Below, piece after piece: positions 24,966 to 25,991 of a stretch of DNA of 30,900 nt. Each line of letters begins with the position of its first letter. Positions within the stretch are counted from its first letter, which is position 1. The position numbers and the translations under genes are program-made. Source of the stretch: a virus (lineage: Duplodnaviria; Heunggongvirae; Uroviricota; Caudoviricetes); the IMG/VR virus record IMGVR_UViG_2619619129_000008; one strand, 5' to 3'. The notes beneath the pieces are model-generated. The model was not told where the DNA came from. It saw nothing but the letters and a program-made list of their open reading frames with translations, and did not search any database.

Positions 24966-25138
24966 ACCCGCAAAATGATAATAATTATCATCTGCATGTC
25001 ACAACGTGCATCTACGCCATCAAACCACGTCAAATAATCAATTATGACGCAGATATCGTATTAATTGATCTGCATCAACTTAACGTAAAAACAACTTCAG
25101 ACAATACAAATCAGCGACACTGAATACGGGACAACCTC

Positions 25139-25372
25139 ATGTCAACGAAGAACAGAACCCGCAGAACAACAACCCGCAACATCCGCTTTCCTAACCAAAT
25201 GATTGAACAAATTAACATCGCTCTTGAGCAAAAAGGGTCCGGGAATTTCTCAGCCTGGGTCATTGAAGCCTGCCGCCGGAGACTGTGCTCAGAAAAAAGA
25301 GTTTCTTCTGAAGCAAACAAAGAAAAGAGTGACATTACTGAATTGCTCAGAAAACAGGTCAGACCAGATTGA
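25139..25372 (+). CDS. ynfO: small basic protein (77 aa), possible ribbon-helix-helix DNA-binding fold; YnfO-like
   Basis: Arg/Thr-rich N-terminus (MSTKNRTRRTTTRNIRFPNQMIEQINIALEQKG...) followed by a helical region; gene order matches the remembered K-12 Qin locus. Fold assignment is a guess. Confidence 0.6.
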   Translation: MSTKNRTRRTTTRNIRFPNQMIEQINIALEQKGSGNFSAWVIEACRRRLCSEKRVSSEANKEKSDITELLRKQVRPD

Positions 25373-25429
25373 AGCAATTTAGATAATCGTGCAGACTACG
25401 CCCCCTCATATCACATGGAAGGTTTATCT

Positions 25430-25840
25430 ATGGATCAGGTAGTCATTTTTAAACAAATATTTGATAAAGTTCGAAACGATTTAAACTATCAATGGTTTTA
25501 TTCTGAGCTAAAACGTCACAATGTCTCACATTACATTTACTATTTAGCCACAGAGAATGTTCATATTGTATTAAAAAATGATAATACAGTGTTATTAAAG
25601 GGCCTAAAAAACATTGTGTCTGTCAAATTTTCAAAGGATAGGCATCTTATAGAAACGACCTCTAATAAGCTGAAATCCAGAGAGATCACATTTCAGGAAT
25701 ACAGAAGAAACCTTGCTAAAGCAGGAGTTTTTCGGTGGGTTACAAATATCCACGAACAAAAAAGATATTACTATACCTTTGATAATTCATTACTATTTAC
25801 TGAAAGCATCCAGAAAACTACACAGATCTTACCACGCTAA
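25430..25840 (+). CDS. ydfO: DUF1398-type protein of unknown function, YdfO-like (136 aa from MDQVVIF; the ORF track starts 5 codons earlier at 25415)
   Basis: Second ATG (25430) preceded by GGAAGG at good spacing; AT-rich codon usage; adjacent to and co-oriented with the ynfO-like gene. Confidence 0.65.
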
Positions 25841-25991
25841 ACCATAACGTCCGGCTTCTCTCACTCCTGAGCCGGACTGCATTGGTTTAATAAAAACCAT
25901 CAACAATTGTGATTTAGATATTCGGAACCATTCAAATATAACAAAACCCCGTAAAAACGAGGTTTATGGATAAATTTTATTATTGAATACA

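Follow-up and report, generated by a model that had tools for sequence, protein, structure and literature searches.

ynfO and ydfO in a lambda-type Escherichia coli prophage: two genes that are not co-conserved and are probably separately inherited

We analysed ynfO and ydfO, two adjacent genes near the right end of a lambda-type prophage of Escherichia coli, which fills the 30,900-nucleotide stretch of viral DNA recorded as IMGVR_UViG_2619619129_000008 in IMG/VR (hereafter the window) and which retains a full lambda-type head and tail late operon. An initial annotation had read the pair as a coupled two-gene module for toxin-antitoxin activity, superinfection exclusion or anti-phage defence. 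We found that the two genes are not co-conserved across genomes, which is the observation that the annotation itself had named as speaking against such a module. The locus is probably a right-end accessory block consisting of two independently inherited lambda accessory or "moron" genes, which are adjacent here since the segment carrying ybcW is absent. The pairing of a small, putatively DNA-binding protein with a partner would be an accident of one mosaic allele. The parts of the locus on which this reading rests are as follows, with positions given for the window:

25139 to 25372, plus strand: ynfO, 77 amino acids
25139 to 25285, plus strand: ynfO codons 1 to 49, the conserved YlcI/YnfO (DUF3950) domain (PF13132, NF041551)
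25286 to 25372, plus strand: ynfO codons 50 to 77 and the TGA stop, a variable C-terminal tail as seen in alignments
25430 to 25840, plus strand: ydfO, 136 amino acids, DUF1398
24928 to 24939: cosN, the 12-nt cohesive end AGGTCGCCGCCC, which is the reverse complement of lambda GGGCGGCGACCT and was read directly
24205 to 24750, minus strand: Nu1/nohA, part of the late operon
22305 to 24230, minus strand: large terminase, part of the late operon, with the head and tail genes further left

Both genes lie on the plus strand and the late operon on the minus strand, as initially described, and cosN separates Nu1 from ynfO, some 200 bp upstream of the latter's ATG. A 1.4-kb stretch of the window matched an E. 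coli chromosome with 100% identity, and RefSeq annotates ynfO and ydfO by name in that chromosome; the same stretch was 99.1% identical to K-12 derivatives. YnfO matched Pfam family PF13132 (DUF3950) at 75.6 bits (cut-off 25; 2.7e-21) and NCBIfam family NF041551 (YlcI_YnfO_N) at 36.6 bits (cut-off 30), while YdfO matched PF07166 (DUF1398) at 157.7 bits (cut-off 22; 1.5e-46) over profile positions 1-119 of 119. As these scores are above the cut-offs and RefSeq annotates both genes, ynfO and ydfO are real genes and not chance open reading frames. An alternative in-frame ATG at position 25415 would extend YdfO to 141 amino acids.

The two genes have the properties expected of morons. They lie between the lysis cassette and cos/Nu1 of a lambdoid prophage, which agrees with the accessory slot originally proposed for them, they are on the opposite strand to the late operon and their GC content is deviant (0.45 for ynfO and 0.32 for ydfO vs 0.57 for the late operon, so the description of both as AT-rich holds). 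They are also present in some close relatives and absent from others, and lambda p78, the homologue of YdfO, is non-essential. In their inter-module place, orientation against the late genes, low GC content, patchy presence and dispensability for lytic growth they are like the bor/lom-type morons of lambda. However, Bor is an outer-membrane lipoprotein which gives serum resistance, whereas YnfO and YdfO are cytoplasmic and have no known phenotype.

Phage counts, HK97-type phages, solitary DUF1398 genes and a second prophage all indicate that ynfO and ydfO are not inherited together. Among phage records, 155 contained a YnfO-like protein and 43 a DUF1398 protein, and all 68 of the Shiga toxin (Stx)-converting phages with YnfO had no DUF1398. 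HK97-type lambdoid phages likewise carry the YnfO domain without DUF1398 and have unrelated genes after ynfO. In three of them the start of ynfO is exactly 41 nt from a divergent HNH endonuclease gene (2959/3001 in locus L006, 2459/2501 in L187 and 2459/2501 in L189), and this spacing is fixed though the C-terminal tails and downstream genes differ. Within 5,426 complete E. coli genomes, YnfO-domain DNA was present in 9,861 copies in 4,184 genomes and full-length ydfO/ybcV-type genes in 3,011 genomes; ycgX, a solitary paralogue, was matched in nearly all of the remaining genomes, and some DUF1398 match was found in 5,376 (~99%). We also inspected 24 enterobacterial loci with a divergent DUF1398 (24-46% identical to YdfO; Kluyvera, Pseudocitrobacter, Raoultella, Salmonella diarizonae and, as ycgX, Escherichia), and within 6 kb none of them had a homologue of YnfO, Nu1 or TerL. 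A further lambda-like prophage of E. coli (L196/L197, 4030-5534) contains in the same Nu1-to-lysis slot a 177-amino-acid DUF1398 protein which is 26% identical to YdfO; its gene is on the opposite strand and follows a 970-bp gap in which no YnfO-like or otherwise convincing open reading frame was found. DUF1398 by itself is a recurrent occupant of this slot. On the YnfO side, one YlcI tail is followed, depending on the locus, by ybcW, by iss or by another hypothetical gene.

Comparison with lambda, DLP12 and Qin indicates what underlies the tandem layout. Using tblastn against phage genomes, we identified the DUF1398 gene as lambdap78 (YdfO is 79.4% identical to its product and is also homologous to ybcV of DLP12) and found that lambda also has a homologue of YnfO, at its extreme right end. 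This is a 64-codon open reading frame at 48109-48303 on the minus strand (3110-3304, minus strand, in our locus L005), which is identical to YlcI of DLP12. Nothing is annotated at these positions in J02459 or NC_001416.1; judged from the sequence, ylcI looks like a conserved lambda gene which the annotation has missed, 200 bp from the right cos end. The order in lambda and DLP12 is cos, ylcI, ybcW/lambdap79 on the opposite strand, ybcV/lambdap78 and bor. In an alignment of five sequences (the window, lambda, one DLP12-type locus and two other E. coli loci), the DNA from cosN to about codon 49 of ynfO was nearly identical in all five loci, which include lambda, DLP12-type and Qin-type arrangements. 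Compared to lambda and DLP12, the window is without ~0.7 kb in which ylcI has its 3' end and which also holds ybcW and the distal part of the ybcV leader; the absent segment falls between window positions 25290 and 25352. Homology to lambda resumes beyond it with the PdhR box, at AGGTCAGACCAGATTGA, which in the window encodes the last five YnfO residues and the stop and in lambda and DLP12 is non-coding ybcV leader. Because the allele is without these ~0.7 kb, the ynfO frame runs into the ybcV leader and the two genes take on a tandem, operon-like layout.

The window and lambda/DLP12 are alike in having an essentially identical cos-to-ylcI block and YnfO residues 1-49, and in strand and position relative to cos and Nu1. 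They differ in that lambda and DLP12 have a 64-amino-acid YlcI and an opposite-strand ybcW/lambdap79 in between, whereas the window has a 77-amino-acid YnfO with another tail; no ybcW or bor homologue was found anywhere in the window. Altogether we saw four arrangements behind the same cos-ylcI block: the tandem pair of the window, ybcW with ybcV, a ybcW-like gene without DUF1398, and iss directly. The tandem allele of UTI89 is 99% identical through ynfO and the leader and is mosaic inside the DUF1398 gene, and scans of IMG/VR loci returned only near-identical Qin-type copies. The K-12 prophage Qin carries ynfO (b4533) and ydfO (b1549) in the same order as the window (nohA, cos, ynfO, ydfO, gnsB, ynfN, cspI, rzpQ), but Qin in K-12 is a truncated cryptic remnant, whereas the late operon of the window prophage is still in place.

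A single TGA (25370-25372) separates ynfO from ydfO, which share one reading frame. An apparently natural YnfO-YdfO fusion protein of 233 amino acids (P0002; L190 1274-1975) was considered and rejected, as the protein has W where the DNA has TGA. Since the DNA still has the TGA, this "DUF3950+DUF1398 fusion" is an artefact of gene calling with an alternative code.

We then considered YnfO on its own. Residues 1-49 are almost invariant across 8 loci, whereas their codons vary synonymously at many positions (for example R6 AGA/CGG; R16 CGC/CGA/CGT; P18 CCT/CCA/CCC; and R46 with four codons), and the YnfO protein is therefore under purifying selection. On the alignments, this selection is limited to residues 1-49. 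Homology between the lambda-type and Stx-type ynfO copies starts exactly at the ATG and stops near codon 47, while their upstream DNA and tails are unrelated. The functional unit of YnfO would thus be a very basic domain of 49 residues (pI 11.8), in a protein whose overall pI of 10.6 and length of 77 amino acids match the small and very basic product first described.

This domain is predicted to resemble ribbon-helix-helix (RHH) proteins. The AlphaFold2 model of YnfO has a mean pLDDT (predicted local distance difference test) of 68, with ~82 for the core and ~55 for the tail, and consists of an extended basic segment (residues 1-18), a helix (19-32), G33 and a second helix from residue 34, which runs at low confidence into the tail; the strand shows as coil in this monomer model. 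The layout of strand, helix, glycine turn and helix within ~45 residues is present, and the YnfO segments RNIRFP...KGSGNFS resemble FNLRWP...NGRSVNS of Arc. In a fold search, RHH proteins were the only DNA-binding folds retrieved, with non-significant scores, and no statistically significant sequence or structure match of YnfO to a solved RHH protein was found. The RHH-like N-terminus suggested at the outset therefore stands as regards its layout, with similarity scores that stay below significance. In the model the fold looks ribbon-helix-helix, and it is from this structure that we infer RHH membership. YnfO is like the Arc/Mnt/CopG repressors and the RHH antitoxins ParD and KacA in size and predicted layout, and shares with Arc a basic arm and strand, a helix, a glycine turn with an N-capping Ser after it, and a second helix, but unlike for these repressors and antitoxins, neither an operator nor a partner was found to be conserved with it. 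We consider YnfO a probable DNA-binding regulator of small size, which would act as a dimer and be expressed by the prophage. It is unlikely to target its own upstream DNA, since conservation of the domain does not extend to that DNA.

Members of the YnfO family are also seen in satellites or satellite-like elements. A divergent open reading frame of ~59 amino acids resembling YnfO (KKGIRFPHELIQQID...NFSSWVIDACKAKL) was found in the Pasteurella element Pmp7 (~3001-3180, plus strand, in L007), which is satellite-like. It is antisense to an annotated 224-amino-acid "transcriptional repressor" whose sequence looks non-genic, and the annotation at that site may be wrong-stranded. YnfO-family proteins are also listed in capsid-forming phage-inducible chromosomal islands (PICIs) of Enterobacter (PMC13612085).

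The likeness of YnfO to RHH antitoxins bears on the most specific form of the coupled module, a type II toxin-antitoxin operon in which an RHH antitoxin, YnfO, would use its tail to neutralise YdfO as the toxin and would repress the transcription of its own operon. We consider this highly improbable. Besides the lack of co-conservation and the near-core status of DUF1398 as solitary ycgX in E. coli, an opposite-strand gene separates the two genes in lambda and DLP12. The tail which would have to neutralise the toxin is hypervariable, is found in the same form before different neighbours and, in the Qin-type allele, has an end derived from non-coding ybcV leader DNA. A DUF1398 protein has also been made in E. 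coli in the quantities needed for nuclear magnetic resonance (NMR; PDB 2HH8), the ASKA over-expression clone of ybcV is viable, with altered glycogen content (PMC2853380), and searches of Pfam, NCBIfam and PADLOC gave no toxin family for YdfO.

The place of ynfO suggests another possibility, namely that YnfO/YlcI is an accessory of the packaging module, close to cos or the first packaging gene, which modulates terminase expression or cos cleavage (for instance by keeping the packaging genes silent in the lysogen), with ydfO as an unrelated passenger. The YnfO domain is always opposite the late operon and beside the first packaging gene, be it cos/Nu1 in lambda-type phages or HNH-TerS-TerL in HK97-type phages. 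This position, divergent from the first packaging gene, is strictly conserved in two unrelated terminase systems: ynfO is 388 bp from Nu1 with cos between, and keeps its exact 41-nt distance to HNH in the three phages above. The strong purifying selection on the domain and the presence of a YnfO-family protein in capsid-forming PICIs also fit. Against this, the two phage types have an identical predicted DNA-reading strand but wholly different DNA next to the gene, and ynfO opposes late transcription and is therefore not a late gene. The ynfO/ylcI region is also not known to be needed for minimal cos function in lambda. We regard a packaging role as rather unlikely.

YdfO had been described as a protein with no recognisable motifs, which does not hold, as it falls in DUF1398 and shares 135/136 residues with the K-12 protein of PDB 2HH8, an NMR structure from structural genomics which bears the title "Hypothetical protein ydfO". 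It is a basic alpha+beta protein with a pI of 9.75, and no signal peptide or membrane segment was found in its sequence. Within the reach of our searches, DUF1398 is a family of Enterobacteriaceae and their phages alone, with 200 representative clusters at E ≤ 0.001, of which many are fragments. L27 and T41 are invariant across a diverse alignment, and Y35, N43, A96 and G99 near-invariant; these conserved positions do not suggest a catalytic site. An AlphaFold2 model of YdfO from an 18-sequence alignment had a pLDDT of 51, too poor for a fold search. YdfO is a cytoplasmic protein and the counterpart of lambda p78; it is dispensable for lytic growth, and its gene probably has its own promoter.

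Several existing statements on this family were examined. Lambda p78 is non-essential by CRISPR interference (CRISPRi) and dispensable for plaque formation (PMC10695390). In exponential phase an imidazolium ionic liquid induced ydfO ~100-fold (PMC4077768); ydfO also responds to over-production of DicC, and ycgX is de-repressed in an hha ydgT mutant. In a 2025 survey, functional inference for ycgX gave nothing consistent. Two legacy labels are attached to DUF1398 proteins, "head protein" (PHROG 413 of PHROGs, and RefSeq) and "putative envelope protein" (GenBank), which we rejected, as they have no sequence support, there is no signal peptide or membrane segment, and knockdown of lambda p78 is without effect. 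We also rejected the statement that over-expression of YdfO raises oxidative-stress resistance (PMC4077768): the work cited for it, Wang et al. 2010 (PMC3105296), never mentions YdfO and names YfdK, YfdO and YfdS of the CPS-53 prophage, so that the claim looks like a mix-up of gene names in which YfdO was mis-cited as YdfO. A call of ydfO as "essential" by TraDIS (sequencing of transposon insertion sites; PMC5821084) was not used, as ydfO is in a dispensable prophage and close paralogues exist.

A role in anti-phage defence, superinfection exclusion or counter-defence, for either gene singly or for both together, also has to be weighed. The slot of the two genes, opposite the late operon, is a classic one for morons, and genes that benefit the host such as bor and iss are common there. 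Unrelated lambda-like prophages repeatedly have DUF1398 at this place, and ydfO is strongly stress-inducible. The region is moreover part of a phage-defence conflict, since the product of the neighbouring gene lambdap79 is sensed by a defence system: according to a 2026 preprint, lambdap79 activates the Vulcan NADase defence, and every lambda-vir escaper of Vulcan was without lambdap79, which it had lost "likely through recombination with the Qin prophage" (bioRxiv 10.64898/2026.09.04.749371). Such recombination would give lambda the ybcW-less arrangement of the window. However, YnfO, YdfO, GnsB and YnfN had no match in PADLOC-DB 2.0 at E ≤ 1, the membrane segments or signal peptide typical of exclusion proteins are missing, and no phenotype is reported in the literature examined. 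Furthermore, ycgX is near-universal and DUF1398 occurs in non-prophage chromosomal contexts, which a role in host physiology would fit at least equally well. A defence function is in our view unlikely. Separately, the tandem ynfO-ydfO allele may be kept because it is without ybcW/lambdap79, the Vulcan trigger. It should be noted that lambdap79 was scored as "essential" in the CRISPRi screen of PMC10695390, contrary to earlier literature.

To consider how the two genes may be transcribed, we listed the sequence elements around them:

25037 to 25069: imperfect palindrome with 13-nt arms, ATCAATTATGACG, 7 nt, CGTATTAATTGAT, upstream of ynfO, from an inverted-repeat search
25353 to 25369: PdhR box AACAGGTCAGACCAGAT, matching the site found for ynfO/ydfO by genomic SELEX (systematic evolution of ligands by exponential enrichment; PMC7660256)
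25382 to 25387, plus strand: GATAAT, a candidate -10 element of a ydfO promoter, at the same place in the ybcV leader of lambda and DLP12 in the alignment
25417 to 25422, plus strand: Shine-Dalgarno sequence GGAAGG of ydfO, 7 nt before the ATG, read from the sequence
25850 to 25876, plus strand: hairpin tccggct...agccgga between the convergent genes ydfO and gnsB, read from the sequence

The good Shine-Dalgarno sequence reported before the second gene is present. ydfO probably also has its own promoter, which we infer from its proximal leader, as this keeps the PdhR box and the conserved GATAAT; the latter was not picked out by a simple promoter scan because its -35 element is poor. The PdhR box is common to the ybcV leader of DLP12 and lambda. 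Genomic SELEX found PdhR sites at ynfO/ydfO and at ybcV/ybcW, the ybcV and ybcW transcripts are PdhR-dependent, and ybcV mRNA was down ten-fold in a pdhR mutant (PMC7660256). Transcripts of ylcI and ybcW have been seen in K-12 RNA-seq (PMC12288877). The binding of DNA by YnfO, its expression in the prophage state and an independent ydfO promoter are the putative parts of our reading, whereas the gene identities, the mosaic structure, the lack of co-conservation and the selection on the N-terminal domain were shown by the sequences. The palindrome upstream of ynfO is an operator candidate only: it is kept in lambda-type loci, but all of the flanking DNA is kept equally, it is not present in HK97-type phages which encode an identical YnfO beta-strand, and within the window its half-site turns up no more often than chance would give.

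These elements bear on the possibility of a regulator-plus-target operon, in which YnfO would regulate the leftward accessory genes, namely ydfO in the window and ybcV together with bor in lambda. In this allele the two genes are adjacent on the same strand with no terminator between them, the palindrome is upstream of ynfO, and all leftward accessory genes at the right end of lambda share the orientation of ylcI. Nevertheless, YnfO is found with entirely different or convergent downstream genes, the ybcV leader is under its own PdhR-dependent control and the palindrome is not conserved along with the domain, and so we think it improbable that YnfO and ydfO form such a unit.

Some observations also weigh against our preferred reading of two independently inherited accessory genes with a DNA-binding YnfO. 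We found no shared operator motif, either by comparing k-mers of lambda-type and Stx-type copies or among inverted repeats upstream of the HK97-type copies, and a consensus scan found no ynfO promoter and none on the plus strand at the locus. The gap between ynfO and ydfO is 57 nt and contains no terminator, so co-transcription and some functional coupling in this allele are possible. The tandem allele is also common and shared across lineages (e.g. UTI89), with a full-length match in ~1,036 genomes, and its frequency could come from selection for the pairing, besides the loss of ybcW.

Some further features were seen around the locus. The best sigma-70-like match of the region was GTGACA-16 nt-TATCAT (10/12; 24975-25002, minus strand), which points leftward from the cosQ side to cosN and Nu1 and overlaps a palindrome, GATAATAATTATC, at 24977-24989. 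The hairpin at 25850-25876 is a possible terminator stem, judged from its sequence, with no clean T-run; a terminator scan did not pick it out and placed a gnsB terminator at 25965-25944 on the minus strand. Downstream of ydfO are gnsB, ynfN, cspI and the lysis genes, all on the minus strand, and the slot beside ydfO holds genes of cold-shock type (cspI, ynfQ, ynfN and gnsB). An Rfam search found no match within the ynfO-ydfO locus itself; a full-length match to the cspA thermoregulator RNA (RF01766, 112.8 bits) at 26812-27197 on the minus strand covers the 5' leader of cspI. A DUF1398 homologue from Kluyvera (L170) likewise adjoins a gene for a cold-shock-domain protein.

ynfO and ydfO are already known as named y-genes of E. 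coli K-12 which belong to curated families and include one solved structure. As a discovery the pair carries little weight, as the pairing which suggested a toxin-antitoxin or defence module fails across genomes. The comparison does however show that the lambda reference genome is without an annotation for ylcI, a conserved and selected gene of 64 codons located 200 bp from the right end, and that DUF1398 and DUF3950 form a gap in the y-ome even of the phage and host that have been studied best. The ybcW-less Qin-type allele, which the 2026 preprint suggests that lambda-vir picks up from Qin to escape Vulcan, provides a concrete selective reason for the polymorphism at this locus. It is a speculative idea, to which we give a low probability, that the 49-residue YlcI/YnfO domain is a so far unrecognised lambdoid regulator tied to the boundary of the packaging module. 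If this were true, YlcI/YnfO might control packaging or the leakiness of late genes in the lysogen, or bind a target in the host DNA.

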